From: Halobacteriovoraceae bacterium
Lineage (GTDB): Bacteria > Bdellovibrionota > Bacteriovoracia > Bacteriovoracales > Bacteriovoracaceae
Direction: 5' to 3'
Length of the DNA: 64,000 nucleotides
Assembly (NCBI GenBank): GCA_963719505.1
Contig: CAVRCF010000002.1
Coordinates: forward strand, 160,001 to 224,000
In this document: positions 5,022-32,920 of the stretch, in pieces
Numbering within the stretch: the stretch's first letter is position 1
How the letters are laid out: every line of letters begins with the position of its first letter
Translations under genes and position numbers: made by a program
Notes under the pieces: model-generated
What the model was told of the DNA's origin: nothing
The model's database searches: none
What the model saw: only the letters and a program-made list of their open reading frames with translations

Positions 5022-5131
5022 GAAGCTAAGGGGGGATGTTCATTTCTTCCCCCTTGGACAAAATCTCCATCAGGGTGTATTTTTAGAACTCAAAATTTCT
5101 GAGATTTCTCAAAAGTGTGGAGCCCTATATT

Positions 5132-6019
5132 ATGAAAAAAATTTCATCTCTTTTTATTTTTTTATTTCTCTGCTCTTTCACTGAGGCCCATTCAAATTAT
5201 CAAATGAGCATCGCCACTTTAAATACATGGATGATTCCCGTTTTGCGAAAAAAAGCAAATGAGAGGGCTTCTTTTATTGGAGAGGCCCTGGCTCAATATG
5301 ATGGAGCATTCTTTCAAGAAGTTTTCAGCAAAAAACAAAAAAGAATTTTTAAAAGAAAGTTATCAGACTTTGATTCTTATGAGGATAGAAGACCACTTGG
5401 GAAGATTACCTCTGGTCTTTTAAGTTTTAGCCGCTTTCCGATCATTGAGAAAAAATTTATAAGATATAGAAAATGTAAACTCGCTCAGTGTTTTGCCAAT
5501 AAAGGTGTTTTGCTAACCAGAGTTAAAATTTCTGAGAATGTGGAGTTGGATGTCTACAACACCCACACTGAACCTTTTTCAGATAGAGCTTGGATTAGAG
5601 AGAGACAGATAAAACAACTTTTGGCCTTTGTTGAAAGTAATGATCCTTTAAAGATGAATCCGGCTATCATCCTAGGGGATTTAAATATTCATTCAGAGAC
5701 TGAAGAGTACGTCGTAATAAATTCTCTTTTAGAGCAGGTGGGTTTTAGGGATTCATGGGTTGAAGTTAACGGCAACGATCCTGGATTTACCTGGAACTCC
5801 ATTCTTAATGAGTGGGGGCAAAGGCTCCATAGAAAGCCTCAAAATCGTACAAAAGAGAGACTTGACTATATTTATGTAAGAGATGGCGTTCATTCTCAAA
5901 TTGCCTTAGATGAGGTGGAATTGATTCTGGATCAAAAGGTGAAACTCAGACCAAATGATGGGGTGACCCATTTTGTGAGTGATCATTTTGGTGTCGGGGC
6001 AAAGCTTACTTTGTACTAA
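5132..6019 (+). CDS. Secreted endonuclease/exonuclease/phosphatase family protein (sphingomyelinase-like)
   Basis: Signal peptide from ATG 5132; motifs TLNTW, FQEVF, NKGV, NTH, GDLN, RLDYI, SDHFGV. Confidence 0.85.
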   Translation: MKKISSLFIFLFLCSFTEAHSNYQMSIATLNTWMIPVLRKKANERASFIGEALAQYDGAFFQEVFSKKQKRIFKRKLSDFDSYEDRRPLGKITSGLLSFSRFPIIEKKFIRYRKCKLAQCFANKGVLLTRVKISENVELDVYNTHTEPFSDRAWIRERQIKQLLAFVESNDPLKMNPAIILGDLNIHSETEEYVVINSLLEQVGFRDSWVEVNGNDPGFTWNSILNEWGQRLHRKPQNRTKERLDYIYVRDGVHSQIALDEVELILDQKVKLRPNDGVTHFVSDHFGVGAKLTLY

Positions 6020-9809: not shown

Positions 9810-9841
9810 TTTTATTTAATATAAAAATTATAAGGACAGAT

Positions 9842-10972: not shown

Positions 10973-10988
10973 CAGATAGGGAGTTTAA

Positions 10989-12485
10989 ATGAAGAATAGA
11001 TTTATAAATCTTCTTGTATTGTCTTCTTTGATGGTGGGTTGTAAAGCCAAGTATCAAGAAGGGTATAGCGCAGGATTTGATAGTGGTTACGAAGAAGGGT
11101 ACGACGGAGCTTATTCCAACTCTTACTCTCAAGGTCAAGGGGATGGAACGTCTCAGGGACACAGTGATGGTTTTAACCAAGGTCATGCTGAAGGGTATGA
11201 TGTGGGTTACGATCAGGCTTATGTGGAATTTGCACAAAGCGATTTCGACAACGGTGAAGCTGATGGTCAAGTTGCAGGATTCAATCAAGGTGTTGCCGAT
11301 GGTGGCGTGGTTGGTCTTGGTGATGGTCAAAATGCTGGTCAAACTGAAGGCTATCAAAATGGTTATAATACAGGTCACTCAGTGGGATACAATGAAACTT
11401 ATCAAAGTGGATTCGATTCAACTTATAGCGGTGCTTACAACGGTGGTTACACAGATGGTTTGGCCGATGGTTTTGGAAACGGACAAGCGATAGGAAACTC
11501 CGACGGACAAAGTGATGGTTATACTACAGGTTATAATCAAACTTATAACGGGGCTTTTAATCAAGGTGAAAATGCTGGTTATGCCGATGGTTATGATTCA
11601 GCTTATGATCCCGCTTATAACTCAGCTTTTAACGAAGGTGAAAATGACGGAGCGGATGACGCTTTTAATGAAGGCTATGATGATGGCTATGCCACAAGCT
11701 ATGATAGTTCATACAGCTCTCACTATAATTCTTCATACAACTCAGCTTATAATTCAGCTTACAACTCAGCTTATAATGAAGGGGATGATGATGCGTATGC
11801 CGACTCATACAACTCAGCTTATGATGCGGCTTTTGATGATGAATACGACTACGGTTACGCCGATGGATTTGACGACGAATACTACTCCTCTTATGACTCG
11901 GGCTACAGCTCGGGGGATGCAGATGGGTACAGTGATGGCTACAGCTATGGATACGATGATGGATGGGATGATGGTTACGACTATGCCCTGGGCTTTTCAT
12001 CGACATCAAAAAATCCAAGTGTAAGAATTGCAGCTCTCGTTAACGCCGATCTTATTAACTACTCAGCACTTCCTCGTTTTGAAAGTCGCTCAGCACTTGA
12101 GAGCGGATCAATTGTTCTGTCTCACGCCGATGGTGGAAGTGTTGATATGGAAAAACTTGGAGCGATGAAAGAGCAGCACTATTTAAATGCTATGAGCTCT
12201 CAACTCGAGTCTCGTTTTGGTCTTTCAAAAGAGTCCTCTCAAAAGATGGCCCTCGTTGCCCACCAGTTTAATAAGATTGCAGGCTCTAGAGAAATGACTG
12301 ATGCCGATGCTTCGACATTTACCAAAAAGCTTATCGGTTTTGATATGACTGAAATCGATGGTGCTGTAAGACAGTCAATGCGAGGCGATTCAAACCGTTT
12401 GGATCAAATTATGCAAACGGCTTCGCAATCAGTGGGAACAAGTCCCGAACAATTTAACTCAATGATTCAAACAATATTTTTCTAA
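10989..12485 (+). CDS. GYxxG-repeat acidic lipoprotein, paralog 3
   Basis: Lipobox MVGC+KAKY, longer repeat stalk including YNSA repeats, same C-terminal domain. Confidence 0.85.
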   Translation: MKNRFINLLVLSSLMVGCKAKYQEGYSAGFDSGYEEGYDGAYSNSYSQGQGDGTSQGHSDGFNQGHAEGYDVGYDQAYVEFAQSDFDNGEADGQVAGFNQGVADGGVVGLGDGQNAGQTEGYQNGYNTGHSVGYNETYQSGFDSTYSGAYNGGYTDGLADGFGNGQAIGNSDGQSDGYTTGYNQTYNGAFNQGENAGYADGYDSAYDPAYNSAFNEGENDGADDAFNEGYDDGYATSYDSSYSSHYNSSYNSAYNSAYNSAYNEGDDDAYADSYNSAYDAAFDDEYDYGYADGFDDEYYSSYDSGYSSGDADGYSDGYSYGYDDGWDDGYDYALGFSSTSKNPSVRIAALVNADLINYSALPRFESRSALESGSIVLSHADGGSVDMEKLGAMKEQHYLNAMSSQLESRFGLSKESSQKMALVAHQFNKIAGSREMTDADASTFTKKLIGFDMTEIDGAVRQSMRGDSNRLDQIMQTASQSVGTSPEQFNSMIQTIFF

Positions 12486-12497
12486 AAGGGAAGACAA

Positions 12498-13982
12498 ATG
12501 AAAAACGTAATACTACTTATCATTGCAATCACCTTTTTAGGGACAGGTTGTAAGAAAAAATACGAAGAAGGTTTTGCAGCCGGAAGAGTGGATGGTCTCT
12601 CTGAAGGAACGGCAGATGGAAGTGCAACCGGTTATAACGATGGTTTTAATAGCACCTACCAAGGAGCTTTTAACGATGGTCATAGTGAAGGTGTAACCGC
12701 TGGAACGAATGATGGTTTTAACGACGGTGAAGCTTTTTACTCTTCACAAGACAATTATCAAAATGGTTTCGACCAAGGGTACGCGGATCAATACAACCCG
12801 GGTTACTCGCAAGGTTATGATGATCAATATGCAGCAGGTTATGCTCAGACTTATCAAGGGGCCTTTAATAACGGTGAAGCCGTGGGTTACCAAGAAGGAC
12901 TTGTAAATGGTTTTCAAACTGGACAAGCGGATGGAACTTCTACTGGGTACAGCGATGGATACAATGACGGAGAAGCGGTAAACTTTCAAGCCGGTTATAA
13001 TAATGGTTATAGCTCTGGTCTTCAAACTGGTCTGCAAAATGGTCAGACTGCCGGTCAAACGGAAGGTTTTAATAATGGTTATACTGTTGGGCACTCTTCT
13101 GGTTCAAGTGATGGCCATAGTGATGGTGATAGTGACGGGTACGCCGATGGTTATAATGCTGGAGACAGTTATTCAAATTACCAGCAAGGTCAAAATGCCG
13201 GTTCAAGTGACGGAAACTATGATGGATCAAATCATGGCTCAAGTGATGGAGCGAATGATGGGGCCTACTATGGTGACGGAGATGGTTATAGCGATGGGTA
13301 CGCTGATGGGCAAAACTCAGGAACCTATGATGGAGACTATGATGGGGCCAATGCTGGATATAGCGCTGGTTACTCAGATGGTGCATGGGATGGTTCAGGT
13401 TCTGGCTTTGATGATGGGTATTATGATGGTTATGATGATTCATTTGATTACGGTTACGATGATGGATATGACGATGGATGGGATGATGGCTACTACGCTG
13501 GATCGAGTTCAAAAATAAATAATCCTCAGGCGAAACTGATGGCCATGATTAACCAAGATCTTTTTGAATATTCAAAACTTCAAAAGTTCGATGGATCAGT
13601 GGCGACAATCGGATTAAGCCACGCGGATAACGGAACAGTTGATATGGGGAAACTTGCGGCCCTTAAAGAGCAGCATTATCTCAATCAGATGGCCAATCAG
13701 CTTAACTCAAAATTTGGTCTCTCTGCTGATCGCGCTAAAGAGATTGCAAAAGTTGCTCATCAATTTAATATGCTCGCTGGAAGTCGTGAACTGACGGAAA
13801 AAGATGCAGACATCTTTGCCACTGAAGTTATCGGTGTGAATTTGAAAGAAGTCGAAGGTGCAGTAAAAGAATCGATGAGAGGAAACTCAAATCTATTAGA
13901 TAAAGTTTTAGAGAGGATCGCTTCAAAGAACGGTACAAGTTCTGAGAATGTAAATGCTATGATTAGCACTATCTTCTTCTAA
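12498..13982 (+). CDS. GYxxG-repeat acidic lipoprotein, paralog 4
   Basis: Lipobox GTGC+KKKY, long repeat stalk; C-terminal domain very close to paralog 2. Confidence 0.85.
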   Translation: MKNVILLIIAITFLGTGCKKKYEEGFAAGRVDGLSEGTADGSATGYNDGFNSTYQGAFNDGHSEGVTAGTNDGFNDGEAFYSSQDNYQNGFDQGYADQYNPGYSQGYDDQYAAGYAQTYQGAFNNGEAVGYQEGLVNGFQTGQADGTSTGYSDGYNDGEAVNFQAGYNNGYSSGLQTGLQNGQTAGQTEGFNNGYTVGHSSGSSDGHSDGDSDGYADGYNAGDSYSNYQQGQNAGSSDGNYDGSNHGSSDGANDGAYYGDGDGYSDGYADGQNSGTYDGDYDGANAGYSAGYSDGAWDGSGSGFDDGYYDGYDDSFDYGYDDGYDDGWDDGYYAGSSSKINNPQAKLMAMINQDLFEYSKLQKFDGSVATIGLSHADNGTVDMGKLAALKEQHYLNQMANQLNSKFGLSADRAKEIAKVAHQFNMLAGSRELTEKDADIFATEVIGVNLKEVEGAVKESMRGNSNLLDKVLERIASKNGTSSENVNAMISTIFF

Positions 13983-18354: not shown

Positions 18355-18675
18355 ATGAAAGAAATTGTATTGATCGATGATGATGAGCTCATACACTTGT
18401 CTTGGAAGATGGAAGCGAAGAGAAGAGATGTAAAGTTACACTGTTTTCTATCAATTGAGGATTTTATAAAAAACGCTCAAAGCTTTTCTAAAAAGACGAA
18501 AGTTTTTATTGATATAAATTTGGGGAATGATGTTAGAGGTGATGTCGCATCAGAAGAGATTTTTAAATTAGGTTTTTTGAATTTGTTTTTAGCTTCTGGA
18601 TTCAGTGAAAGTGAAGTCTCTAAACCGTCCTGGATTAAAGATTTTTCAGGAAAGAGATTTCCCGAAAGTGTTTAA
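18355..18675 (+). CDS. Stand-alone response regulator receiver protein
   Basis: GGAG RBS, ATG 18355; IVLIDDDE, phospho-acceptor FIDINLG, LASG, GKRFP. Confidence 0.8.
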   Translation: MKEIVLIDDDELIHLSWKMEAKRRDVKLHCFLSIEDFIKNAQSFSKKTKVFIDINLGNDVRGDVASEEIFKLGFLNLFLASGFSESEVSKPSWIKDFSGKRFPESV

Positions 18676-18679
18676 AAAG

Positions 18680-18700
18680 TATACAGGACTATAATATTTT
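18680..18700 (+). repeat. Direct repeat (target duplication), left copy
   Basis: TATACAGGACTATAATATTTT is identical to 21763-21783; IR alignment suggests a core TSD of about 16 bp, CAGGACTATAATATTT. Confidence 0.85.
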
Positions 18701-18759
18701 GTTGAATCCCAGCTACTATGTCCGGTTAATATCCCAGCGATTATGTCCTACCTTGTGTG

Positions 18760-19905
18760 TCATATTGCTCGCTTTTTATAGTCATAAATCCTCTTTGTGT
18801 TGAACACTATTGGATATATTTCTTTACCCATAATATCAAAGCTCTGACTGCCATCAAGATGGGTATTTATATTCACTTCGCGACCTCGATAGCAAAACTT
18901 TTCGTCTATCAACCAAGTAATTGCTTTGAAAGAAAATACGTTTCCAACTCCAATTTTTCTTCTCTCTTTTTTACAAAAAACTCTGTCTAAATTTCCAAAA
19001 ACATTTTTCCTGTAAGCTGTATCGAAGCTTTGCGACTCTACCGAGAACTGCTTATTAAAAGCTTCTATAAAAGTTGTTCTCAAATAGTCATTTGCCTCTT
19101 CCAAAGTTTCTATTTTATAAAACGAAAGCTCCGCTACCAGTCGATCTTGTAGAGTCCTAAAGAGACGCTCTACTCGTCCTTTAGCTTGTGGAGAGCTTGC
19201 AAGAATTAAGTTAATATTAACCTGATCAAAGGCTCTTGAGATCTGAGATTCCCAGTCTCGATCTACCTTTCCATAAATCCCTGCTTGATCCATGTAGAAG
19301 GCTTCTGGAATTCCATTTTTATCAATTACTTCCTTGATAACTTTCATCGAATGCATCGACTTCTCTCCATAAAAAAACTCTGCTGCTAAAATCTTTCCGG
19401 TTGCATCGTCGATTGCTGCAATTAAGTCCGATTTGTGATTACCAAACCAAGGGTGATGACTTCCATCGAACTGCACGAGCATACCTTCTTGAGGGACTCT
19501 GGCTCTAGGCTTGAAAGATCTTCTCTTCGCTCTTCTTGGAGCTTTTACAAGATTGTGTTTAGTTGCAATTCGATGAAGTGAAGACTTTGAAATTTTAATG
19601 TTTTCATTTTTAATTAACATTTCGTTAAAGTGAGTGAGATTAAATCCAACATACTTATAAGTTAGAAGATCTACGATCAAAGCTTCTAGTCTTTCAGAAG
19701 TTTTATTTACTGGAGCAACACCAGAATTTTTATGTATGACTCCTATGAAGTCATGAGTCTCAACATTCTTAATAATACGTTGAGACTGGCGATATGACTT
19801 TTTAGATATGATGGAAAATTCTTTAATAGAAATTTTTCCGGCTAAGACTTCACAGGCGAGTCTATAAAGCTTCATTTGTTTAGCATCCATGCTTATTTTT
19901 CCCAT
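18760..19905 (-). CDS. ISNCY (IS1202-type) DDE transposase
   Basis: GMLVQFDGSHHPWF, IDDATG, YMDQAGIY, ASSPQAKGRVERLFRTLQDRL. Confidence 0.93.
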   Translation of the reverse strand: MGKISMDAKQMKLYRLACEVLAGKISIKEFSIISKKSYRQSQRIIKNVETHDFIGVIHKNSGVAPVNKTSERLEALIVDLLTYKYVGFNLTHFNEMLIKNENIKISKSSLHRIATKHNLVKAPRRAKRRSFKPRARVPQEGMLVQFDGSHHPWFGNHKSDLIAAIDDATGKILAAEFFYGEKSMHSMKVIKEVIDKNGIPEAFYMDQAGIYGKVDRDWESQISRAFDQVNINLILASSPQAKGRVERLFRTLQDRLVAELSFYKIETLEEANDYLRTTFIEAFNKQFSVESQSFDTAYRKNVFGNLDRVFCKKERRKIGVGNVFSFKAITWLIDEKFCYRGREVNINTHLDGSQSFDIMGKEIYPIVFNTKRIYDYKKRAI

Positions 19906-19993
19906 TTAACACCTCAGGTTTGATTACCTGAGTATTGTAATATTAATGCGTTAAGTAGGACATTTTCGCTGGGAAATAAGGATAGGACATAAT

Positions 19994-21743
19994 GTAACTG
20001 CTCAATAAAGTGTTCTTCAAATCTTTAAAAATATTTATTTTGAACTAAACATCAGAAATTGTTTGGCCATCCATCTCTTTTTTGTAAATATATCTCCATG
20101 GCATTTGATGAATTAAAAAACATGGCAATGGGATGGGTAAATACTTGGAATAAAGGCAAACTCAAAAGAAAGTTAAAAGAGACTGCTCAGCGTGCTGTAG
20201 ACCTTACTATAGAAAATTCAGAGTTGGAAAAAAAGAATAGTGAACTCATAGATGAAGTTCGTCGTCTCAAAGGTGAAAAAGAAAAACCTAAAATAAAGCC
20301 AACAAATACTAGTGACCTAAATCCACCTCCGAAGAAAGAACATAAGAAAAAGTCTAAAAAGAAAGATATCGAAGTTGATGAAGAGATTGAAATTTCTCCA
20401 GATAAAAATGAACTCCCTAAAGACGCTAAATTCATCGGTTCTAGAGATGTTGTGGTCCAAGAAATAGTATTTAATCGCAGAAATATAAAATTCTCTATTA
20501 AGAGATATTACTCTGAAAGTCTTAGTAGAGTTATCGAAGGTGAGATACCTTCAGGTTTCAAGGGCCATCAGTTTGGTCCTAAACTTCGGGCCCACATTCT
20601 TTATTTGAATTACAAATTAAGAGTTCCCCACGAAAAGATTAGAGAAATGCTCTCTGAGCTAAAAATTGATATTAGTGCTGGAACTATAAATTCAATTCTA
20701 AATAACCTGACTGATGACTTTCAGGTTGATCTGGAATCCGCAAGACATGCAGGACTAAAAAGAGATTCGAAAGTTCATATCGATGATACTGGGGCGAAAG
20801 TTAATGGAGTAAAAGCTTACACATTTGGAGTAAGCCATAAGTACTTTACTAGCTTCACTACGAGTTTTGAAAAGAATCGTTGGGCATCGGTGGGAGCACT
20901 CTTTGGAGGTGAGCAAAGGTTTATTTTCGATAGAGCTGCAATTGATTTTATTGGTAAGAAACTAAAACGTCCCAAGGTTACAGTATTTTTTAACCTTCTA
21001 GAAAAGAAGATAAGTTTTAGTCGAGAAGAATTAGAGGTCTTTTTTGAAGATTCGACTTTCTCAGATGTAACTAAAAAACAAAAAGATATCGTTAGAACTG
21101 CTGGTGCACTTAGTTATGCGAACTCTAGAGCGAATGGACCACCAATAAGATTTTTAATCTCAGATGAAGGGACAAATTTTAATGGGCTTCATAGGAACCA
21201 TCAGCTTTGTTGGGTGCATGAGATTCGTAAATATAAGCTATGTGAGGTTTTCAAAAGAATAGAGAGTGAAACCCTTGAGAAATTGGTTCGTCAGTGGAGA
21301 GCTTTTTATAAGCTCATGAAGAGGTACAGGAATAATCCTGACACCGTTAAGAGAATACAGATTCGATCAGAATTTGAGAGGATCACGTCTTTAAAAACAT
21401 TAGTTAAACCACTGGATGCACAGCTTGGAAGAACAAGAAAGAATAGAGATAAACTTTTACTATTTTTGAAATACCCACAACTTCCTCTGGATAATAACCT
21501 TTGCGAAAGAGACCTTCGAGAACGAGTGATAAAAAGAAAAATCTCACTTCAAAACCGCTCATTGAAAGGAATGAAGTCTTGGGACTTGATGCTTTCACTG
21601 GCCTCAACTTGTAGAAAAATAAATTTGAGTTTTTGGCGATATTTAGAAGATCGAATCTCCCAACGAGAAGAAATTCCATACCTGGGCAAGCTAGTTCAAG
21701 CTATTTAAATCCTATAAATTTAAACACAATATTGAGCAGTTAC
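19994..21743 (+). mobile_element. IS66-family (single-ORF, ISBst12-like) insertion sequence, copy 1, 1750 bp
   Basis: Terminal IRs GTAACTGCTCAATA...; 8-bp TSD GACATAAT at 19986-19993 and 21744-21751. Confidence 0.92.
20059..21708 (+). CDS. IS66-family transposase (start could be ATG 20098)
   Basis: Coiled-coil N-terminus, FGPKL, HIDDTG, LISD, HQLCWVHEIR, DNNLCERDLR motifs. Confidence 0.92.
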   Translation: MFGHPSLFCKYISMAFDELKNMAMGWVNTWNKGKLKRKLKETAQRAVDLTIENSELEKKNSELIDEVRRLKGEKEKPKIKPTNTSDLNPPPKKEHKKKSKKKDIEVDEEIEISPDKNELPKDAKFIGSRDVVVQEIVFNRRNIKFSIKRYYSESLSRVIEGEIPSGFKGHQFGPKLRAHILYLNYKLRVPHEKIREMLSELKIDISAGTINSILNNLTDDFQVDLESARHAGLKRDSKVHIDDTGAKVNGVKAYTFGVSHKYFTSFTTSFEKNRWASVGALFGGEQRFIFDRAAIDFIGKKLKRPKVTVFFNLLEKKISFSREELEVFFEDSTFSDVTKKQKDIVRTAGALSYANSRANGPPIRFLISDEGTNFNGLHRNHQLCWVHEIRKYKLCEVFKRIESETLEKLVRQWRAFYKLMKRYRNNPDTVKRIQIRSEFERITSLKTLVKPLDAQLGRTRKNRDKLLLFLKYPQLPLDNNLCERDLRERVIKRKISLQNRSLKGMKSWDLMLSLASTCRKINLSFWRYLEDRISQREEIPYLGKLVQAI

Positions 21744-21762
21744 GACATAATTGTCGAATCTT

Positions 21763-21783
21763 TATACAGGACTATAATATTTT
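21763..21783 (+). repeat. Direct repeat (target duplication), right copy
   Basis: Identical 21-mer to 18680-18700. Confidence 0.85.
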
Positions 21784-21837
21784 CCAGTTTCCATAACTTC
21801 TTTTGAAAAATTGTTAGTATTTTAACAAGGAGTTTAT

Positions 21838-22452
21838 ATGAATACTTTGACGCTTTTTCAAGAGCGATTCTCTATTGGAGAGATCTTTCCTGACTTTTCA
21901 ACTTTAAAGAAGAGTATCAACTTACCTTTCGTGATAGGTAGCCATTGGTATGCTTTTTCAAAATTTATGCCTGAATTTCTACTTGAAATGTCCCACAAAA
22001 CTAGTTGTATGTTTACCAAAACGAAGCTTATCTCTATATGCAATGAGGAACTTGGAGATGGGGATATTAAATCTAATCACGCTGAGCTCTTTTATAAAGC
22101 CCTTAAGGAGAATGAAATATCCTTGAATAGGGAAGCCTATCCTGACTCATTGAACTTCTTGAGAGAACAAATTACATCTGAGAAATCCAAGTTTTTCCTT
22201 CTAGGGTTGCATTTAGGACTGGAGATCATAGCCAATGAAAATATCGAGGCATTAGCCGACGGACTTGGCAAAAAACGAGAACTACAAGAGTCTTTATTCT
22301 TTAAAATACATATGGTTAATGAAGACATACATATTCAAAAGTGTCTTGATAACTTTAAGTTAGCAAAGTCCTCAGTTGAAAAAGAGCTTTTTTTACAAGG
22401 ATTTGATACGGGGTTGAAATTTTGGTCTTTATTTTGGCAGGGATTAAATTAG
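21838..22452 (+). CDS. Heme-oxygenase-like diiron oxidase (iron-containing redox enzyme family)
   Basis: EELGDGDIKSNHAELF, GLHLGLE, FFKIHMVNEDIH give the E/H/E/H/E-D/H ligand pattern of HDO enzymes; AAGGAG RBS. Confidence 0.75.
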   Translation: MNTLTLFQERFSIGEIFPDFSTLKKSINLPFVIGSHWYAFSKFMPEFLLEMSHKTSCMFTKTKLISICNEELGDGDIKSNHAELFYKALKENEISLNREAYPDSLNFLREQITSEKSKFFLLGLHLGLEIIANENIEALADGLGKKRELQESLFFKIHMVNEDIHIQKCLDNFKLAKSSVEKELFLQGFDTGLKFWSLFWQGLN

Positions 22453-22453
22453 T

Positions 22454-23695
22454 ATGACCCAGAAACTTCGTCTCACACAATCTATACCACTAGGAATCGG
22501 TTCTATATTGGGGTCGGGAGTGCTTTTCCTACCATCTTTGACCTATAAAGTTGCTTTAAATGATGTATTAATTTCTTGGCTTTTAATAATAGCGTTGTGC
22601 ATACCAGGTATTTTGTTCTTTTCAGAGATGCTTGAAGGTGTTGATAAAGATAATTCGAGTATGTCAGACTTAGTTTCTCTGGGACTTGGTAAGCATATAG
22701 CTCATAGTACACATGTGATATTACTAGGGACTGTAATCTTTGGAATGCCTTCTGCTGCTATAATTGCTGGCAATTATATGGCAAAAGCATTTTCTGTCGA
22801 TTCCTTTACAGTCCTTGTGCCATTCCTAATTTTATTAATTAGTTTTGTTGTTTGTTACAGGGGGGTGAAAGCTAGCTCTCGTGTAGCATCGGTAATAACC
22901 ATAATTCTTTTGATTATTGCTACATACCTGATAGTAACTACATTTAGACCTCTAGAAAGTTATCAAGCAATTAAGCCTTCATTTAATTTGGGGAATATAT
23001 ACGAAGGTGCGGTATTAGCCTTTTGGGCTTTTGCAGGCTTTGAAAATCTGACCTTCTTATATGATAAATTCGAAAAACCTAGAAGAGATTTAATTTTGAC
23101 AATAGCGATCTCAGTCATTTTTTGTGGATTAATCTATATCTTCCTTGTGTGTAATTACGCAGCTTTAGTGCCTGTTGGAAATATCGATGATACCGTAGGA
23201 CTACTGCAGCTCACAGGAAATGGAGAAGGTCATTTATCATTGATTTATGTAATTGGTGGATTTGCGTTGTTCTCTGTCATTATTAACTTTTTATCTTGGA
23301 CTTCAGGTATTGAGTCTCTCATTGTGAAATCTGTTAGAAAAGGGATACTAAAAAAGGAACTAGTATATATTTTCGCCACTGAAAAATCCCCCCTTATTGT
23401 ACTGTTCTGTGTTTTTGCATTCAATACTGGAGTTGGACTTGCTTCACCTGATGCCTTCAACAATATATTGAAGACAGTGAGCTCCAATTTTCTTATCCTT
23501 TATACAATGCTAGTTGCATCCTATGTTTTATATACTAAATCCAAAATTAAAAAGATAGTCAGTGGAGCCCTCTTGATTTTACTCCTTGTCACTATAAGTT
23601 CCTCTGGAAGTCTTTTAGTCTATCCCTTAATACTTTTTCTGTTCTCAGTGTTGTCATCTCTTAGAAATGAATTTTCAGAGGTTGCTGATGAATAG
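22454..23695 (+). CDS. APC-family amino acid transporter, YjeH-like exporter
   Basis: GSILGSGVLFLP (TM1), FWAFAGFE...KPRRD (TM6), about 12 hydrophobic segments. Confidence 0.8.
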   Translation: MTQKLRLTQSIPLGIGSILGSGVLFLPSLTYKVALNDVLISWLLIIALCIPGILFFSEMLEGVDKDNSSMSDLVSLGLGKHIAHSTHVILLGTVIFGMPSAAIIAGNYMAKAFSVDSFTVLVPFLILLISFVVCYRGVKASSRVASVITIILLIIATYLIVTTFRPLESYQAIKPSFNLGNIYEGAVLAFWAFAGFENLTFLYDKFEKPRRDLILTIAISVIFCGLIYIFLVCNYAALVPVGNIDDTVGLLQLTGNGEGHLSLIYVIGGFALFSVIINFLSWTSGIESLIVKSVRKGILKKELVYIFATEKSPLIVLFCVFAFNTGVGLASPDAFNNILKTVSSNFLILYTMLVASYVLYTKSKIKKIVSGALLILLLVTISSSGSLLVYPLILFLFSVLSSLRNEFSEVADE

Positions 23696-24692
23696 ATTAT
23701 TATCTCTTTTCCTTCTTCTTTCACTTCCTGTTTTCGCTAAGGATGATACTAAAGAGAAAGTATGTGTTTTTCTGAAAAAGACAAATGAATATAATTCATA
23801 CATAAAAAGGATGGAAAAAGTTTTCATCAGTTCTCTCGATGACAGTTTGTTTGATCAAGAAGTTTTTTATCATAAGTCTTCGATAGAATCCATAAAGCAG
23901 GTTGCTCAAAAAATATCCACAGATAGGTGTAAGTTCATTTGGGGGGGGATCTCGAGTTCAGATTCACTCAAACTCTTAAAACTTCTCCAGATGCCTAATA
24001 AGACTCTAATTACACCAACATCTAGTTCAATCGAACTTTCTAAACTTCAGAAAAATACTGTTTATATGACTCCTAACGATAATGAAGTTGCGGACTTAAT
24101 TTTTTCGAAGATAAAGAGAGAAGAAAAAGAGGTTATCGTCATTCAAAATGTTTCGTTCCCAAATACAAACGTCATTGGAGCTAAATTATTTGAATTATTT
24201 AAGAAAAATGGAAATAAAGTTAAAAGAATAAAGATCTTCAAACATACAAAAAATATTCTTTTTCCAGAGATAAAAGGTGAGCAGATTGTCGTTGTGCCAT
24301 CGTATGAAAGTGATTTAAATAAAGTTGTAAAGTCTTTGGGCAACGTCAAAGGTATCACTTTTGTTGGTATTGATGCGTGGGGGACGAATGAAAGCGTGTA
24401 CAAAAAATTTGCATCAGGAAGTAAAAACTTTAATTCGATTCGATTAGGTTACTGGAACAATAGAACTTGTGAAAGGAAAGAATTTCAGTCCATTTGTAAG
24501 AAACATTCTAAATACTTTTCAAAAGAGTTCGATTCTTTTATGGCGATTGCTTTTGATTCAGCAGTCTACCTTAACCAGCTAGAAGGCTCTTCAAAAGACT
24601 CCTTCATGGCTTATCAACCTTCGTCAATCTTTAGAAATGGGCATTTCTACTCTATATCAAGCAATGGTATTCAATATATGGAGACTAAGTGA
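23688..24692 (+). CDS. Type 1 periplasmic binding protein (LivJ/ABC branched-chain amino acid-like)
   Basis: Signal peptide from ATG 23688 (GAGG RBS); WGGISSS, LITPTSSS, GIDAWG, AIAFDSA resemble LivJ-family motifs. Confidence 0.72.
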   Translation: MNRLLSLFLLLSLPVFAKDDTKEKVCVFLKKTNEYNSYIKRMEKVFISSLDDSLFDQEVFYHKSSIESIKQVAQKISTDRCKFIWGGISSSDSLKLLKLLQMPNKTLITPTSSSIELSKLQKNTVYMTPNDNEVADLIFSKIKREEKEVIVIQNVSFPNTNVIGAKLFELFKKNGNKVKRIKIFKHTKNILFPEIKGEQIVVVPSYESDLNKVVKSLGNVKGITFVGIDAWGTNESVYKKFASGSKNFNSIRLGYWNNRTCERKEFQSICKKHSKYFSKEFDSFMAIAFDSAVYLNQLEGSSKDSFMAYQPSSIFRNGHFYSISSNGIQYMETK

Positions 24693-25933
24693 GAGAAACT
24701 GAGAAATTAAGACAAATTTTTTCAATTCTGTTTTGTAGCATCATGGTAATGTTATTTGTTACAATTTCAAGCTTTGTAGGCGAGCTTTATGAAGTTCATA
24801 AGAAAGAAAAAGAGCTAATAATAAAAAAGATAACCGAATCGCTTGAAATAAATACTGTAGATCTACAAGAAGAGGTTTACATGGGACAGTTTGAGTCTAC
24901 AAAACTAAGAATTGAGAGCATTTTAGATTCACTTGGAGTAGAAAAATCTCAGATTGGGATAATTTCAAATGGGAAATGCATAAACCTTTCAGCTAATTCA
25001 GAATGTAAAAATGAACTTTTACAATATAAAAAATTGAAAACTAAAACTTTAAATGTCCAAAAGACTGGAAGTTTTTCAATCTTCTCTATGCCAATTATGC
25101 TCTTTAATAAAATAGAAAATATTATTTTAATTAAGATCTCTAATGAATATACTTCTGTTAACAGGCTTGAGTATATCTTGACTCAAATACTACCTTTGCT
25201 ACTGCTCTTTGTTGGTTGGTTCTGTTTGTATCGATACGTTGAAGCAAATGTGATTACTCCTCAAATTAATAAAATTGCAGAGTTTGAATCAAATAAAAAG
25301 TTTCACGATAGGATGATTCTAGTTGCCCATGACTTGAGAGCTCCAGTATCTTTTATAACTCAGGTTGTTGATAGACTTGAACAGAGTGATGAAAGAGAGT
25401 TGTTGTCGATGAGTTCTACCAGGATAAATGATATCGTCGAAAACTGTCTCGAAGATATCAAAATTGCAAAGAATAATGATCGAATTTTCTGTCTAGAGAG
25501 TGAAGTATCAAATTTGGTATGTGAATTTATGAACCGTTTTAAATCCGTTGAAATAAAACTTAAAAATTCGATGAGTAAAAAAGTTTATCTTTCAAATATA
25601 CATAAACAAAACCTTGTAAGATCTATGTCAAATTTAATTTCTAATGCTATTGAGTCCCAATCATTTCTCGGTATAGTAACAATTGATATGGAAAGTTTGA
25701 ATAGTTACATAAATATTGTGATCTCCGATGATGGATGCGGAGTTCCTGTTGAAATACAGGACAAAGTATTAAGTGGTTTTTCAACTAAGGAAAAAGGTAA
25801 CGGTCTGGGGCTTTCCTCTGCATTGAGTTGGGCGGAATCTGTCGAAGGCTCGCTCAAATTTGTTAAAAAAAGTAAAGGTGCTTCTCTTAAGTTAAGTCTT
25901 CCACTTTCACTTTTTCAAGCGAGAATGTCATGA
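24689..25933 (+). CDS. Membrane sensor histidine kinase
   Basis: Two TM helices around a periplasmic domain; H-box VAHDLRAP, N-box NLISNAIE, DDGCG, GNGLGL. Confidence 0.92.
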   Translation: MRETEKLRQIFSILFCSIMVMLFVTISSFVGELYEVHKKEKELIIKKITESLEINTVDLQEEVYMGQFESTKLRIESILDSLGVEKSQIGIISNGKCINLSANSECKNELLQYKKLKTKTLNVQKTGSFSIFSMPIMLFNKIENIILIKISNEYTSVNRLEYILTQILPLLLLFVGWFCLYRYVEANVITPQINKIAEFESNKKFHDRMILVAHDLRAPVSFITQVVDRLEQSDERELLSMSSTRINDIVENCLEDIKIAKNNDRIFCLESEVSNLVCEFMNRFKSVEIKLKNSMSKKVYLSNIHKQNLVRSMSNLISNAIESQSFLGIVTIDMESLNSYINIVISDDGCGVPVEIQDKVLSGFSTKEKGNGLGLSSALSWAESVEGSLKFVKKSKGASLKLSLPLSLFQARMS

Positions 25934-26571
25934 TCGCTGTGTTAAAACAAAGGTTACACAAGTACTACCGAAAATCTAAGCTTGATAGGAACGAGGAGTT
26001 AACAGAGTACTACTTCGGTTATGGCGCAAATCTAGATTTTAATAGATTTAGGAAGCTTGGTATCAATGCGCAAGAAATAGGGAGCGGTCGTTTATTAAGC
26101 CATAAGATCAACTTTTCGCTGGCAACTGAGTATTTGGGTAAGAGCTATGCCGGTGTCCATCAAAGCGATAAAGATTTTGTTCCAGGAGTTGTTGTTAAAA
26201 TGAGTCCAAAATCTCTAAACTATCTAGATAGCTTGGAGTGGTGTGGGTTCGGTGCCTACGAAAGAGAAATGAAAAAGATTGAAATAGGAGGGAAGATTAT
26301 TGATTGCTGGGTTTATATTGTTAAGAATCCTGACTTCAAGAGGCTCCCATCGAAGATATATTTAGAAAATATGATTAAAGCAGCAAAGAAAAAGGAGTTT
26401 CCTGATAGTTATGTCGCGATGCTGGAAGCCCAAGCTTTTGGAGAACACTTTCCGATAGATCATACTTTCTCTTTAGTTACTTATTCTTCTTCAAGACCAA
26501 AAAGTAAGGTCTTGAGACCTTTTTTGATTGTTCACGATAAACTCAGAGACAAGCTTTGTTCACTAATTTGA
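25930..26571 (+). CDS. Gamma-glutamylcyclotransferase (GGCT/AIG2-like) family protein
   Basis: YYFGYGANL, VPGVV, LDSLE..GAYER, WVYIV, PSKIYL motifs. Confidence 0.85.
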   Translation: MIAVLKQRLHKYYRKSKLDRNEELTEYYFGYGANLDFNRFRKLGINAQEIGSGRLLSHKINFSLATEYLGKSYAGVHQSDKDFVPGVVVKMSPKSLNYLDSLEWCGFGAYEREMKKIEIGGKIIDCWVYIVKNPDFKRLPSKIYLENMIKAAKKKEFPDSYVAMLEAQAFGEHFPIDHTFSLVTYSSSRPKSKVLRPFLIVHDKLRDKLCSLI

Positions 26572-26636
26572 ATCTCCTCCAAACTTAATTAAAATTAATT
26601 TCTTGGTGTTAAAATAAAATATTGTAACATTTAACG

Positions 26637-26825
26637 ATGAATCATCTTGTTGACTTAAAAGTAGTTAGAGGGGAAGAAATTGAACCTTATCTGCTGGATA
26701 TTGCAAATCTAAGAATCTCTCTGTTTAAAAATTATCCATACCTGTCCACTGGCTACTCAAAAGAAGATATCGATAAACCGGACTGGATTCTTGATATCGT
26801 AGGGAAAAGGGCCGACTTCTCTTAA
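26637..26825 (+). pseudogene. Chimeric remnant: GNAT-like N-terminus fused to a receiver-domain C-terminus
   Basis: IANLRISLFKNYPYL resembles GNAT N-termini (LRIxVFRxFPYLY); STGYSKEDIDKPDWILDIVGKR aligns with ASGFSESEVSKPSWIKDFSGKR of the 18355 receiver. Confidence 0.55.
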
Positions 26826-26891
26826 ATTTTGACTCCCATTGATAAGATTGCTCTCTTGAGCAAAATAATTTTGCCAGTTATGATTATACCT

Positions 26892-27764
26892 ATGAAATAT
26901 CTTTTTATAATTCTTCTCATCTCTTCTTGTAATGCTCTGACTTTATTAAGCAATAAAACAAGTCGCGTTGACGAGGGATTTGAAGAAGATGAGCTTAACG
27001 AGCAATATGATAACCTTGTGTGTCCAGGCGGATACTCAAAAGTTTCAGGAAGCTCTTCATTTGGAACCAATACTTTTTGTGTCATGAGATTTGAAGCTAA
27101 GAATGTCAGTGGAGTTGCAAAGTCTCAGCCGGAGCTTACGCCGTGGTTCGGAACTGGGGTGGATCTAAGTGGCGCTAAGGCTATATGCCAAAGCTTGGGA
27201 ACAGGTTACGACTTAATCTCTAATCCTGAGTGGATGACTATCGCAGCAGAAATAGAACTTAATGGCAATAACTGGGATTCAGGATCAGTTGGAACGGGGT
27301 GTATTGTCAGAGGAAATTCAGGAGATACCGCTGGTAATTGCGGATACAATAATGCAGGAAATATAGACTTTGGACCTACCACTGGCCGAAACGTCAAAGC
27401 CCGTCACTTTTTAGCAAACGGGCAAGAGGTTTGGGACTTATCTGGTAATGTTCAGGAATGGGTAGATTGGACACTGGGGGGATCTGCAGATACTGGACCC
27501 ACCATTTGTACTGGCTCAGATATAGAGCTCAATGCTGTCAGTTGCGGTGGACTAACTGCAATCGACTATCAACCCCAAGATCCGACTCTAGATTCAACTC
27601 GAGGTGCTGGTAAGTTCTTTGGTGGAACTGGTGGTGGGATTATCAGAGGCGGAAGCTATCTCAACTTAGCTACCACCGGGATCTATCGCCTTACGACCAA
27701 CAGTCTTCCTACCAATACAACAAGTGTTATTGGCTTTCGCTGCGTCTATCGTGGTGATCAATAA
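26892..27764 (+). CDS. Lipoprotein with formylglycine-generating-enzyme (FGE/CLec-like) domain
   Basis: Lipobox ISSC; LISNPEW, WDLSGNVQEWV, RGGSY, GFRCV. Confidence 0.82.
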   Translation: MKYLFIILLISSCNALTLLSNKTSRVDEGFEEDELNEQYDNLVCPGGYSKVSGSSSFGTNTFCVMRFEAKNVSGVAKSQPELTPWFGTGVDLSGAKAICQSLGTGYDLISNPEWMTIAAEIELNGNNWDSGSVGTGCIVRGNSGDTAGNCGYNNAGNIDFGPTTGRNVKARHFLANGQEVWDLSGNVQEWVDWTLGGSADTGPTICTGSDIELNAVSCGGLTAIDYQPQDPTLDSTRGAGKFFGGTGGGIIRGGSYLNLATTGIYRLTTNSLPTNTTSVIGFRCVYRGDQ

Positions 27765-27765
27765 T

Positions 27766-28239
27766 CTACCAAGCGTGACGGGCCCCTTGCTTAATCATTT
27801 TTTTCATCGCCTCATCAATTGAATCATGACTCAAATAGACGTGGCTTCCAGAGTATTTAAGGGGAACACGAATCTGTCCGACACAGGCATAAAGATCTGA
27901 GCCGTCGGCTTTAGCCTTTTTAATGGCTTCCTTTATCATTTTCTTTTGTGTTCTAAATTTATCTTTTAAAGAGAAAGCGGTGAAAGATTTTTGTTCAACT
28001 TCACCCAAAATTAGATCGTAGTTATCTTCACTGGAGCCGTTAACGGTATAGCCGATGGGATTGTTAAACTTAGTCATTAGGACATATTTAGAATTTAATC
28101 CAAAAATGCTTGGTTCAAGACGTTTGAGAATCTTTCCATTTCGCGCCTTGATGACTTCACCACAGTTCATATTGATAGTGAAAGCCTGAGCAAGGGCGCA
28201 AAAGCTAAAAGCTGCGAGAGTGAGTAGTGTTTTATTCAT
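27766..28239 (-). CDS. Hypothetical secreted protein
   Basis: GAGG RBS; signal peptide MNKTLLTLAAFSFCALAQA from ATG 28239. Confidence 0.7.
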   Translation of the reverse strand: MNKTLLTLAAFSFCALAQAFTINMNCGEVIKARNGKILKRLEPSIFGLNSKYVLMTKFNNPIGYTVNGSSEDNYDLILGEVEQKSFTAFSLKDKFRTQKKMIKEAIKKAKADGSDLYACVGQIRVPLKYSGSHVYLSHDSIDEAMKKMIKQGARHAW

Positions 28240-28339
28240 GTTTACCTCGGGTTTTCTTTTGAGTTTATCAAAGAAGAAGAAGGCAATGGGAGGATTTGAA
28301 AATAATCCCAGGCCTGTCAAAACAATCGACAAAAATATG

Positions 28340-30089
28340 GTAACTGCTCAATATTGTGTTTAAATTTATAGGATTTAAATAGCTTGAACTAGCTTGCCCA
28401 GGTATGGAATTTCTTCTCGTTGGGAGATTCGATCTTCTAAATATCGCCAAAAACTCAAATTTATTTTTCTACAAGTTGAGGCCAGTGAAAGCATCAAGTC
28501 CCAAGACTTCATTCCTTTCAATGAGCGGTTTTGAAGTGAGATTTTTCTTTTTATCACTCGTTCTCGAAGGTCTCTTTCGCAAAGGTTATTATCCAGAGGA
28601 AGTTGTGGGTATTTCAAAAATAGTAAAAGTTTATCTCTATTCTTTCTTGTTCTTCCAAGCTGTGCATCCAGTGGTTTAACTAATGTTTTTAAAGACGTGA
28701 TCCTCTCAAATTCTGATCGAATCTGTATTCTCTTAACGGTGTCAGGATTATTCCTGTACCTCTTCATGAGCTTATAAAAAGCTCTCCACTGACGAACCAA
28801 TTTCTCAAGGGTTTCACTCTCTATTCTTTTGAAAACCTCACATAGCTTATATTTACGAATCTCATGCACCCAACAAAGCTGATGGTTCCTATGAAGCCCA
28901 TTAAAATTTGTCCCTTCATCTGAGATTAAAAATCTTATTGGTGGTCCATTCGCTCTAGAGTTCGCATAACTAAGTGCACCAGCAGTTCTAACGATATCTT
29001 TTTGTTTTTTAGTTACATCTGAGAAAGTCGAATCTTCAAAAAAGACCTCTAATTCTTCTCGACTAAAACTTATCTTCTTTTCTAGAAGGTTAAAAAATAC
29101 TGTAACCTTGGGACGTTTTAGTTTCTTACCAATAAAATCAATTGCAGCTCTATCGAAAATAAACCTTTGCTCACCTCCAAAGAGTGCTCCCACCGATGCC
29201 CAACGATTCTTTTCAAAACTCGTAGTGAAGCTAGTAAAGTACTTATGGCTTACTCCAAATGTGTAAGCTTTTACTCCATTAACTTTCGCCCCAGTATCAT
29301 CGATATGAACTTTCGAATCTCTTTTTAGTCCTGCATGTCTTGCGGATTCCAGATCAACCTGAAAGTCATCAGTCAGGTTATTTAGAATTGAATTTATAGT
29401 TCCAGCACTAATATCAATTTTTAGCTCAGAGAGCATTTCTCTAATCTTTTCGTGGGGAACTCTTAATTTGTAATTCAAATAAAGAATGTGGGCCCGAAGT
29501 TTAGGACCAAACTGATGGCCCTTGAAACCTGAAGGTATCTCACCTTCGATAACTCTACTAAGACTTTCAGAGTAATATCTCTTAATAGAGAATTTTATAT
29601 TTCTGCGATTAAATACTATTTCTTGGACCACAACATCTCTAGAACCGATGAATTTAGCGTCTTTAGGGAGTTCATTTTTATCTGGAGAAATTTCAATCTC
29701 TTCATCAACTTCGATATCTTTCTTTTTAGACTTTTTCTTATGTTCTTTCTTCGGAGGTGGATTTAGGTCACTAGTATTTGTTGGCTTTATTTTAGGTTTT
29801 TCTTTTTCACCTTTGAGACGACGAACTTCATCTATGAGTTCACTATTCTTTTTTTCCAACTCTGAATTTTCTATAGTAAGGTCTACAGCACGCTGAGCAG
29901 TCTCTTTTAACTTTCTTTTGAGTTTGCCTTTATTCCAAGTATTTACCCATCCCATTGCCATGTTTTTTAATTCATCAAATGCCATGGAGATATATTTACA
30001 AAAAAGAGATGGATGGCCAAACAATTTCTGATGTTTAGTTCAAAATAAATATTTTTAAAGATTTGAAGAACACTTTATTGAGCAGTTAC
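28340..30089 (-). mobile_element. IS66-family (ISBst12-like) insertion sequence, copy 2, 1750 bp
   Basis: Same IRs as copy 1 in inverted orientation; own 8-bp TSD AAAATATG at 28332-28339 and 30090-30097. Confidence 0.92.
28375..30024 (-). CDS. IS66-family transposase, protein identical to copy 1
   Basis: Translation identical to 20059-21708. Confidence 0.92.
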   Translation of the reverse strand: MFGHPSLFCKYISMAFDELKNMAMGWVNTWNKGKLKRKLKETAQRAVDLTIENSELEKKNSELIDEVRRLKGEKEKPKIKPTNTSDLNPPPKKEHKKKSKKKDIEVDEEIEISPDKNELPKDAKFIGSRDVVVQEIVFNRRNIKFSIKRYYSESLSRVIEGEIPSGFKGHQFGPKLRAHILYLNYKLRVPHEKIREMLSELKIDISAGTINSILNNLTDDFQVDLESARHAGLKRDSKVHIDDTGAKVNGVKAYTFGVSHKYFTSFTTSFEKNRWASVGALFGGEQRFIFDRAAIDFIGKKLKRPKVTVFFNLLEKKISFSREELEVFFEDSTFSDVTKKQKDIVRTAGALSYANSRANGPPIRFLISDEGTNFNGLHRNHQLCWVHEIRKYKLCEVFKRIESETLEKLVRQWRAFYKLMKRYRNNPDTVKRIQIRSEFERITSLKTLVKPLDAQLGRTRKNRDKLLLFLKYPQLPLDNNLCERDLRERVIKRKISLQNRSLKGMKSWDLMLSLASTCRKINLSFWRYLEDRISQREEIPYLGKLVQAI

Positions 30090-30254
30090 AAAATATGTCA
30101 TAACGGCATTTGACACAAAGCACGGTGCTCGATGCCTAGATCACTTTGGCCCCATTACCTTTTTACAGTACTAATTCTGAGTATTTAGCTCGGGTATTAT
30201 TGGCAATCCAATTGCACAAAGGGGGTAAACAAGATTTTTAATTCTGGGGAATTT

Positions 30255-32548: not shown

Positions 32549-32920
32549 GGGGGTGCCCTGGTTTCGACAGGGGCGCGCAAAAGACTGAGTGCGTGTCTAG
32601 GTTGGTCAGCGGGCCTAGTAAAAAGCCGACCAAATTTAGTTGGAAACAACGAATACGCAATGGCTGCATAAGACTACGTTTTATAGCAACATTTGAGGGG
32701 CCTATACCGATAACAAAAGATAGGTAAAGAGTTCGAACTGGGAACTCCGTAATCTAAACTAGTGGAGAAGAAGCCGGGAATATCTCCTTAAAAAAGCCAC
32801 CGGGTTTTGTGAAATTGACAAATTTCTCACAGCCGTCACTTGCTCCAATGTGACTACACACGTAGTACTCTTTTCTGGATCCGCTCTTGGACGTCGGTTC
32901 GATTCCGACCACCTCCACCA
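32549..32920 (+). ncRNA. ssrA: tmRNA
   Basis: 5' GGGGGTG...GGTTTCGAC pairs with 3' CACCTCC-ACCA including the G3-U pair; T-loop GGTTCGATTCC; tag frame GNNEYAMAA* at 32642-32671. Confidence 0.96.

Follow-up and report, generated by a model that had tools for sequence, protein, structure and literature searches.

A conserved Bdellovibrionota gene cassette built around a heme-oxygenase-like diiron enzyme and a binding protein-kinase pair: a candidate make-export-sense signalling system

A stretch of 64,000 nucleotides from a Halobacteriovoraceae bacterium (assembly GCA_963719505.1, contig CAVRCF010000002.1, positions 160,001 to 224,000), hereafter the window, carries at positions 18355-26571 a cluster of six genes that recurs as a cassette in other genomes of the Bdellovibrionota. 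The core of this cassette is made up of an enzyme of the HDO (heme-oxygenase-like diiron oxidase) family, a periplasmic binding protein and a membrane histidine kinase, and all of its parts come from amino-acid-related families. Our reading, to which we assign a probability of roughly 0.4, is that the locus represents one copy of a signalling cassette which is conserved and moves horizontally, and which would act as a make-export-sense circuit for an amino-acid derivative. The six genes of the window copy are the following.

18355-18675, plus strand: stand-alone receiver-like protein of 106 aa, placed by its likeness to the receivers of hybrid kinases
21838-22452, plus strand: HDO-family diiron enzyme (PF14518)
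22454-23695, plus strand: permease of the APC superfamily, YjeH-like, candidate exporter (PF13520, PRK11021)
23667-24692, plus strand: secreted binding protein of the LivJ/Peripla_BP_6 type, candidate receptor (family profile)
24689-25933, plus strand: membrane histidine kinase with two transmembrane (TM) segments (PF02518)
25930-26571, plus strand: enzyme with a gamma-glutamyl cyclotransferase (GGCT) fold (PF13772, PF06094)

The five genes at 21838-26571 are tightly packed in the same orientation, as had been described in an earlier annotation made from the sequence alone (the original prediction). A single nucleotide separates the HDO and permease genes, the permease and binding-protein genes overlap by 29 nt, and overlaps of 4 nt join the binding protein to the kinase and the kinase to the GGCT gene. 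The receiver gene, predicted to sit about 80 bp upstream once a nested insertion sequence (IS) block is removed, lies 79 nt from the HDO start, counted from its stop codon with the block and one copy of the flanking repeat taken out. All six reading frames are intact, and the G+C content of the cluster is 0.32-0.36, compared to 0.38-0.40 in the left flank. The proposed gene identities hold at the family level by Pfam and NCBIfam searches, profile and structure comparisons and, for the receiver, by alignment. The earlier inventory was therefore right about the six genes and the nested IS block, but it missed a sigma54-dependent response regulator, a permease-binding protein fusion, a conjugative link and a second IS66 copy, all described below.

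The recurrence of the gene set in other genomes shows that it is more than a chance neighbourhood. With the HDO alone as query, relatives were detected in 4 of 40 related genomes. In 401 genomes of the phylum, a profile built from five HDO sequences matched strongly 15 times (E≤6e-41, counting the genome of the window) and weakly four times, with carriers in 10 of the 100 genomes of the window's own family (f1), in 3 of 34 in family f6 and in the one genome of family f17 (1/1). Four new loci came from a pattern scan of 185,579 species genomes with a four-sequence HDO alignment, all seven records of which are titled Bacteriovoracaceae, Bacteriovoracales, Bacteriovoracia or Bdellovibrionia, and a metagenome scan provided two more usable loci. 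This gives a total of 22 loci, three of which (L045, L049 and L057) end at a contig edge before the kinase, leaving 19 complete ones. The cassette loci found come from Bdellovibrionota, and the three core proteins of the complete loci are only 17-45% identical to those of the window. The original prediction had suggested looking elsewhere for the co-occurrence of HDO, APC permease, binding protein and kinase: in 19/19 complete loci, the genes for the HDO, for a binding protein of the Peripla_BP_6 type and for a histidine kinase with two TM segments are neighbours in the same orientation, and the APC permease is present in 18 of the 22 loci.

The HDO subfamily itself is rare: an exhaustive search of 1.84 billion representative proteins matched 95 clusters at E≤1e-30, a number that rises to 218 at E≤1e-3. 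A word-based protein search with the HDO returned two other proteins only, and a tblastn search of 72,556 plasmids gave no match. Full-text searches of the literature gave no description of this gene set; the supplementary figures of one paper (PMC13185094) might include a cluster of the f6 type.

Around the conserved core, the composition of the cassette varies. In five loci (L006, L008, L029, L030 and L031), the APC permease and the binding protein are encoded as a single open reading frame (ORF) of 784-803 aa. Two loci of family f6 (L034 and L036) have a transporter of the major facilitator superfamily (MFS) instead of the APC permease, with an H+ antiporter as best NCBIfam match. The transporter position is occupied in L033 by a 177-aa ORF without family assignment, and L007 has no transporter while keeping the HDO, a short-chain dehydrogenase/reductase (SDR), the binding protein and the kinase. 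An SDR is found in 11 loci and a GGCT in nine, never alongside an SDR; L038 has neither. An ATP-grasp ligase is present in L033, L034 and L036. The kinase carries one or two C-terminal receiver domains in 14 loci, and a sigma54-dependent response regulator of the NtrC type lies beside the cassette in 13 of the 22. In genome G253 (L038, at 4207-5661), the cassette is without this regulator and stands directly beside the housekeeping lptCAB-rpoN-hpf cluster.

The enzyme that would make the signal belongs to the HDO family by several measures. It matches PF14518 with 48.6 bits, above the cut-off of 28.9, and its AlphaFold2 (AF2) model, with a predicted local distance difference test score (pLDDT) of 95.7, is all-helical and has the heme-oxygenase-like fold. 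Foldseek retrieves CADD-like, HrmI, BesC, CADD, SznF, PqqC, FlcD, UndA and RohS structures with TM-scores of 0.5-0.7 (0.6-0.7 for CADD, HrmI, BesC, SznF and UndA) at 11-19% identity, and a sequence search of the PDB has BesC (7TWA, E=3.5e-4) as its sole match. BesC and HrmI are the nearest characterised enzymes, and according to the PDB titles their substrates are free lysine derivatives. Across 115 relatives, conservation reaches at least 90% at six residues (E71, H81, E129, H158, E162 and H165), which are invariant in the five-sequence set; we take them to correspond to the three-His, three-carboxylate metal site of HDOs. PMC13185094 reports 1,447 HDOs near ATP-grasp ligases and at least 25 cluster types, and presents HDO plus ATP-grasp clusters as amino-acid-modifying biosynthetic clusters with antimetabolites such as mangotoxin among their products.

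The GGCT of the window scores 43.6 bits with PF13772 and 39.2 bits with PF06094, both over the cut-offs. Residues 23-167 align with human GGCT (2PN7, E=1.3e-7) in a way that preserves the YGxNL motif and pairs a Glu of the window protein with a Glu in the human 'EQEG' stretch. This Glu is presumably the catalytic one. Deprotection of the HDO product, as had been proposed for this enzyme, may be its function in the window.

The direction of transport was assessed by family likeness. The best NCBIfam match of the permease is PRK11021 (YjeH), with E=4e-31 and 108.5 bits compared to 1e-15 for the next best, and the same model is best for the permease orthologs (96-143 bits), ahead by at least 14 orders of magnitude in E-value. 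Because PRK11021 is best-scoring throughout yet below its cut-off, we call the permease YjeH-like and not a YjeH equivalog. The fused permease-binding protein is represented by 34 protein clusters that are 54-97% identical to the L006 protein and have both Pfam domains; in NCBI they are named as Bacteriovoracaceae proteins and in JGI as 'amino acid efflux transporter'. Both transporter types, APC and MFS, are most similar to efflux families, and by this likeness they would work in the efflux direction.

Taken alone, the binding protein of the window has ANF_receptor as its only match, at 19.6 bits, which is below the cut-off of 25.4. Its assignment comes from the family: the orthologs pass the PF13458 cut-off, which places them in the LivJ/HAAT type, and a profile of 17 binding-protein sequences retrieves the LIVBP-type structures 3TD9 (E=1.5e-47), 4GNR (3.5e-42) and LivJ 1Z15 (6.5e-22). 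The profile also matches the ligand-binding domains of metabotropic glutamate receptors. The AF2 model has a pLDDT of 87, and a hydrophobic segment spans N-terminal residues 6-24. Positions G93, S97, P117, N161 and D236 are invariant in the alignment. We take the Ser, a 'TPT' stretch and the Asp, by general analogy with LivJ-type proteins and not residue by residue, to be holders of the alpha-carboxylate and alpha-ammonium groups. As originally noted, the protein has no ABC partner: no ABC-transporter family is found among the 59 window ORFs scanned. The same applies within the cassette in the related loci scanned, where the one ABC_tran match (L038) belongs to the lptB-rpoN neighbourhood. Its position directly before the membrane kinase, also pointed out earlier, is kept in the relatives.

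The kinase of the window has TM segments at residues 13-31 and 162-180 around a periplasmic loop of about 130 aa, followed by a DHp domain with His214 and a HATPase_c domain (PF02518). The same architecture, two hydrophobic segments around a loop of about 80-150 residues, is seen in each of 15 kinases scanned (14 full-length, that of L007 partial). H214 is invariant in an alignment of 17 cassette kinases, which also shows a conserved 'EE' in the sensor loop. Compared with Pfam, the loop matches no known sensor family. It is otherwise poorly conserved, though one residue, C97, is invariant in 17/17 kinases.

Modelling of the complex, another check suggested in the original prediction, supports docking of the binding protein on the sensor loop of the kinase. 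Using residues 26-341 of the binding protein, residues 32-163 of the kinase and paired 17-row alignments, the predicted complex scores 0.64, compared to 0.15 for the best control. Three runs agree in 100% of the contacts, and the pLDDT of the partner is at least 78. The mark used for such models is reached by 116 of 157 solved complexes and by 2 of 215 mismatched pairs, counts that are only a rough guide with custom alignments. In the model, the binding protein would contact the kinase with both lobes (residues 73-77 and 98-105; 162-168 and 189-194), and the kinase with residues 58-77, including E61 and E62. On the kinase side of this predicted interface, the contact residues vary less than the remainder of the loop does (entropy 2.08 vs 2.53, permutation p=0.0065).

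The 106-aa receiver-like protein has no Pfam or NCBIfam match. Over 103 residues it shares 48.5% identity with the domain that ends the 640-aa hybrid kinase of L047; its identity is 43% to the receiver of the L046 kinase and 38% to a stand-alone homolog beside the L007 cassette. An alignment of ten sequences shows no variation at D53, G62 and K100, conservation of at least 90% at D8-D10, and S/T at position 81 in most sequences; these are presumably the positions expected of a phosphorylatable receiver. By its match to the C-terminal domain of hybrid kinases, the window receiver is assigned to the cassette system. The sigma54-dependent regulators of the other loci have NtrC, AtoC and PrdR as best NCBIfam matches, with the LuxO model among the matches. 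Single-domain response-regulator genes (PF00072) just past the kinase in L035 (15440-15832), L047 (15495-15902) and L034 (17721-18251) may be extra outputs.

In 8 of the 22 loci, the cassette abuts genes of a conjugative type IV secretion system (T4SS), always on the side of the sigma54-dependent regulator. These eight loci span three cassette types and two families, and five of them are close kin. In genome G008, the regulator is divergent from an operon with TrbC/VirB2 pilin and TraC, and further on are a resolvase, TrbI, an FtsK-like ATPase, a replication-relaxation protein (Replic_Relax) and a large serine recombinase, followed by housekeeping genes. In genome G176, the genes that precede the regulator and cassette encode a tyrosine integrase, a HepT/MNT pair and a MobA/VirD2 relaxase, as well as NikA/MobC, TraC, TrbI, TraK, a T2SSE ATPase and a TraU-domain protein. 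Both genomes thus have beside the cassette what is expected of an integrative conjugative element: T4SS genes, a gene for a relaxase or for replication-relaxation, and a recombinase. The window's 64 kb contain no tra genes.

Sigma54-like sites face the tra genes in seven of the eight linked loci. The site has the form TGGCAY, 5 nt, YTTG(T/A)A in six of them and TGGCAT, 5 nt, ATGCT in L035. The -12 element is atypical (TTGTA, TTGAA or, in L035, ATGCT) compared to TTGCA, and the scores are reached by 5-97 of 300 shuffles of each region, so that the sites are suggestive only. Given these atypical elements, the shuffle counts and the close kinship of five of the loci, control of the transfer genes is put forward as a hypothesis.

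Taken together, these features can be arranged in one pathway. The cytoplasmic diiron HDO would oxidise a free amino acid or a close derivative, and a second enzyme would tailor the product: GGCT in the window, SDR or SDR plus ATP-grasp ligase elsewhere. The YjeH-like APC permease, or the MFS transporter in one variant, would export the product, and the periplasmic LivJ-type protein would bind it or a close analogue. The binding protein would also dock, via both lobes, on the conserved acidic helix of the kinase sensor loop. The kinase would pass phosphate to the receiver domain, separate in the window and fused elsewhere, and in most relatives also to the adjacent sigma54-dependent response regulator. 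This regulator may activate the cassette itself, together with the conjugative T4SS genes in those loci that have them nearby. Synthesis and export are favoured over import and degradation by the efflux-like transporters and by the ATP-grasp ligase of one variant. A make-export-sense arrangement is favoured by the missing ABC partner, by the position of the binding protein next to the kinase together with the modelled docking, by the receiver-kinase fusion and by the parallel with LuxPQ-LuxO described below. The circuit proposed in the original prediction is in this sense partly supported, by the conserved unit, the efflux-like transporters and the modelled receptor pair, and stays conjectural for loop closure, transport direction, HDO substrate and deprotection by GGCT.

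Several observations weigh against this reading. The loci are not independent, since all come from one phylum and L006, L029, L030 and L031 are 63-98% identical in the compared proteins. LivJ-type proteins normally serve uptake, the 108.5 bits of the permease fall short of the PRK11021 equivalog cut-off of 284 bits, and the tethering of a binding protein to an exporter would sit oddly with a diffusible signal. In the modelled interface, the contacts on the binding protein are not more conserved than the rest of that protein (entropy 2.18 vs 2.10, p=0.68). No Hpt domain that would link the hybrid kinases to the sigma54-dependent regulator was found in the kinases or in small neighbouring ORFs. 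The window copy has no such regulator beside it, its receiver gene is parted from the operon by the nested IS block, and no orthologous regulator was found elsewhere in the window's genome, where the best match is 30-33% identical, a paralog level. A weighted consensus scan upstream of the enzyme genes found a good sigma54 promoter in 3 of 19 loci (L033, L036 and L037) and none in the window; convincing in so few loci, such promoters were not used as support. Finally, the substrate, product and ligand of the cassette and the direction of transport are putative. It is because of these counter-points that we retain two other explanations as serious ones.

In one of them, the flow is reversed: the binding protein would capture an external amino acid or analogue, for instance one released by prey, signal through the kinase and feed an APC importer, with HDO and GGCT or SDR detoxifying or catabolising the compound. 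The PDB matches of the binding protein are uptake components, GGCT enzymes are degradative, and two-component systems with sigma54 activators beside transporters often control nutrient use, in line with the NtrC, AtoC and PrdR matches. The permease-binding protein fusion resembles binding domains fused to importers and fits uptake at least as well as export. However, the best transporter families are efflux types, an ATP-consuming ATP-grasp ligase fits synthesis and not catabolism, and the characterised HDOs that were matched are mostly biosynthetic, like those cited in PMC13185094. L007, moreover, lacks a transporter yet keeps the HDO, SDR, binding protein and kinase. On balance, we consider uptake unlikely but worth serious attention. 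The other explanation shares with the signalling circuit all the evidence for synthesis and export. Here the HDO and tailoring enzymes would make a toxic or useful non-proteinogenic amino acid as an exported antimetabolite or public good, and the sensor would read an unrelated outside cue (prey, recipient or nutrient amino acids) with no autoinduction. BesC, the closest solved enzyme by sequence, makes the precursor of a toxic amino acid, and HDO plus ATP-grasp clusters make antimetabolites such as mangotoxin (PMC13185094). Yet the operon itself contains the receptor genes in each of the 19 complete loci, the tethering of the binding protein to the exporter in five loci is easier to explain if it meets the exported molecule, and no separate immunity gene was noticed in the scanned flanks. 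We regard this explanation as rather improbable. That the enzymes and the sensor are functionally unlinked cargo, with the window copy a decaying remnant, is very improbable: the copy is indeed without a sigma54-dependent regulator, split by IS elements and lower in G+C than its flanks, but its six frames are intact, and the gene set, with its translational coupling and fusions, has persisted through deep divergence.

Returning to the make-export-sense circuit, a bolder form of it can be stated, which we hold to be unlikely as a whole. It would be a new type of autoinducer circuit on the integrative conjugative elements of predators, in which an HDO-made non-proteinogenic amino acid is released by the YjeH-like or MFS transporter and captured by the LivJ-type protein, sometimes tethered to the exporter. 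The signal would then run through the hybrid kinase and the sigma54 activator to the element's own T4SS genes, so that the density of carrier cells is sensed.

Among the closest known systems is the LuxS/LuxP-LuxQ/LuxU/LuxO system of Vibrio for autoinducer 2, where a periplasmic binding protein is the co-receptor of a membrane hybrid kinase and the output is a sigma54-dependent regulator of the NtrC type. The cassette resembles it in that its binding protein is modelled on the kinase and its regulators include a match to the LuxO model. It differs in that its binding protein is LivJ-type and not ribose-binding-type (by family assignment), its sensor loop has no Pfam match and no Hpt protein was found in it; moreover, synthase, exporter and receptor are in one operon, and the synthase would be an HDO and not LuxS. 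In CqsA/CqsS and in LqsA/LqsS/LqsR of Legionella, the synthases are pyridoxal-phosphate-dependent acyl-CoA transferases and the kinases sense a lipid signal in the membrane. As in the cassette, the synthase gene adjoins the sensor kinase and there is a stand-alone receiver protein, whereas these systems are not known to have a binding protein or a dedicated exporter.

The ICEBs1 RapI-PhrI, pCF10 PrgZ/PrgX and Ti-plasmid TraI/TraR modules use peptide or acyl-homoserine lactone (AHL) signals and cytoplasmic receptors. In them, a mobile element encodes a make-export-sense circuit beside its transfer genes, a position that the cassette has in 8 of 22 loci, and the PrgZ binding protein of pCF10 captures the signal. 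In contrast, the cassette combines an HDO with a putative exporter of the amino-acid type, a candidate periplasmic receptor, a kinase and a sigma54-dependent regulator, and its control of transfer is a proposal. With BesC, HrmI, SznF and MboA, the cassette HDO shares the fold, the same six conserved metal-ligand positions and the theme of an HDO with an ATP-grasp neighbour (PMC13185094). None of these pathways is known to have a binding protein-kinase pair, and the 11-19% identity to solved HDOs sets the cassette enzyme apart. DctA-DcuS, BceAB-BceS and LysP-CadC each combine a transporter and a membrane sensor as one sensing unit. A fused permease-binding protein beside a kinase would fit such a three-part sensing complex, but these systems are not known to have a dedicated biosynthetic enzyme or a binding protein tethered to an APC permease.

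If the loop is closed, the cassette would be the first case of an HDO serving as signal synthase, and also the first signalling system whose binding protein is tethered to an exporter of the APC family. To our knowledge, no dedicated cell-cell signal has been described for Bdellovibrio-like predators, and the cassette would offer a testable one. The conjugative link points to a counterpart, working with a small molecule, of those systems in which peptides or AHLs gate horizontal transfer. Under the competing explanations too, the locus would provide an uncharacterised HDO reaction on an amino acid and a LivJ-type protein and kinase as a receptor pair, with a modelled interface that can be tested by mutation.

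The mobile elements near the window copy are listed here with the tmRNA gene downstream.

18701-21762: nested IS block, an ISNCY element carrying an IS66-family element
18760-19905, minus strand: ISNCY transposase (NCBIfam NF033594, 302.8 bits)
19994-21743: IS66-family element, copy 1, with its transposase at 20059-21708 (PF03050/NF033517)
28340-30089, minus strand: IS66-family element, copy 2, inverted relative to copy 1 (inverted repeat of 1794 nt at 99%)
32549-32920: tmRNA gene (tag GNNEYAMAA)

The nested block between the receiver gene and the operon is real, as predicted. The ISNCY element is bounded by an exact 21-bp direct repeat (18680-18700 and 21763-21783). A target duplication of this length is unusual; long ones are made by the IS1202 group of ISNCY. 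IS66 copy 1 lies within the right end of the ISNCY element, with terminal inverted repeats and an 8-bp duplication, GACATAAT. Copy 2 has its own 8-bp duplication, AAAATATG, at 28332-28339 and 30090-30097, and the two copies bracket 21744-28339. As each copy has its own duplication, they were inserted independently; a composite transposon spanning 21744-28339 was rejected on these grounds and since there is no sign that the segment moved as a unit. The window's genome contains nine full copies of the IS66 element at 100% rounded identity. Both copies in the window lie in similar sequence of about 43 nt (21744-21786 and 28297-28339, roughly 70% alike), which suggests a preferred IS66 target.

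A sigma70-like site upstream of the HDO gene (TTGTCG, 16 nt, TATAAT; 10 of 12 matches) lies at 21751-21778, with its -35 element in the IS end and its -10 element in the duplicated target; the insertion may thus have provided the HDO operon with a hybrid promoter. In this region, promoter-like sites occur no more often than in shuffled sequence, with 26 found compared to a mean of 29.3. At the other end of the operon, a terminator-like hairpin with a T run (26506-26521) falls within the last 65 nt of the GGCT frame and not after it. It is followed by a 62-aa ORF (26637-26825) without Pfam match, which, judged by eye, resembles the N-terminal part of a longer protein and may be what is left of a gene, placed between the cassette and a lipoprotein gene of the FGE-sulfatase-like type. 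This gene (26829-27764) and the ORF at 27766-28332 were considered as cassette members and rejected because they have no counterpart in the 19 loci searched.

Downstream of the tmRNA gene are metal-resistance genes (CDF transporters, two RND systems, a multicopper oxidase and an iron permease). Beyond the window end, 52-61 kb downstream and past the tmRNA gene, T4SS remnants are found, namely a 412-aa TraG/VirB4-like P-loop ORF and TrbI, together with a tyrosine integrase that is 37% identical to the G176 integrase. The metal-resistance genes, T4SS remnants and integrase probably form a genomic island at ssrA; a search of the next 130 kb for att-like repeats, taken as at least 16 nt of the 3' end of the tmRNA gene, found none. 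The window cassette lies upstream of the tmRNA gene and for this reason is not placed in the island. Elsewhere in the window, four tandem paralogous genes at 8715-13982 (364-498 aa) each have a match to the glycine-rich Yae1_N-type motif and to no other Pfam family. Multicopper oxidase domains are split across the overlapping ORFs 58513-59970 and 59927-60760, which may reflect a frameshift or a two-gene arrangement.

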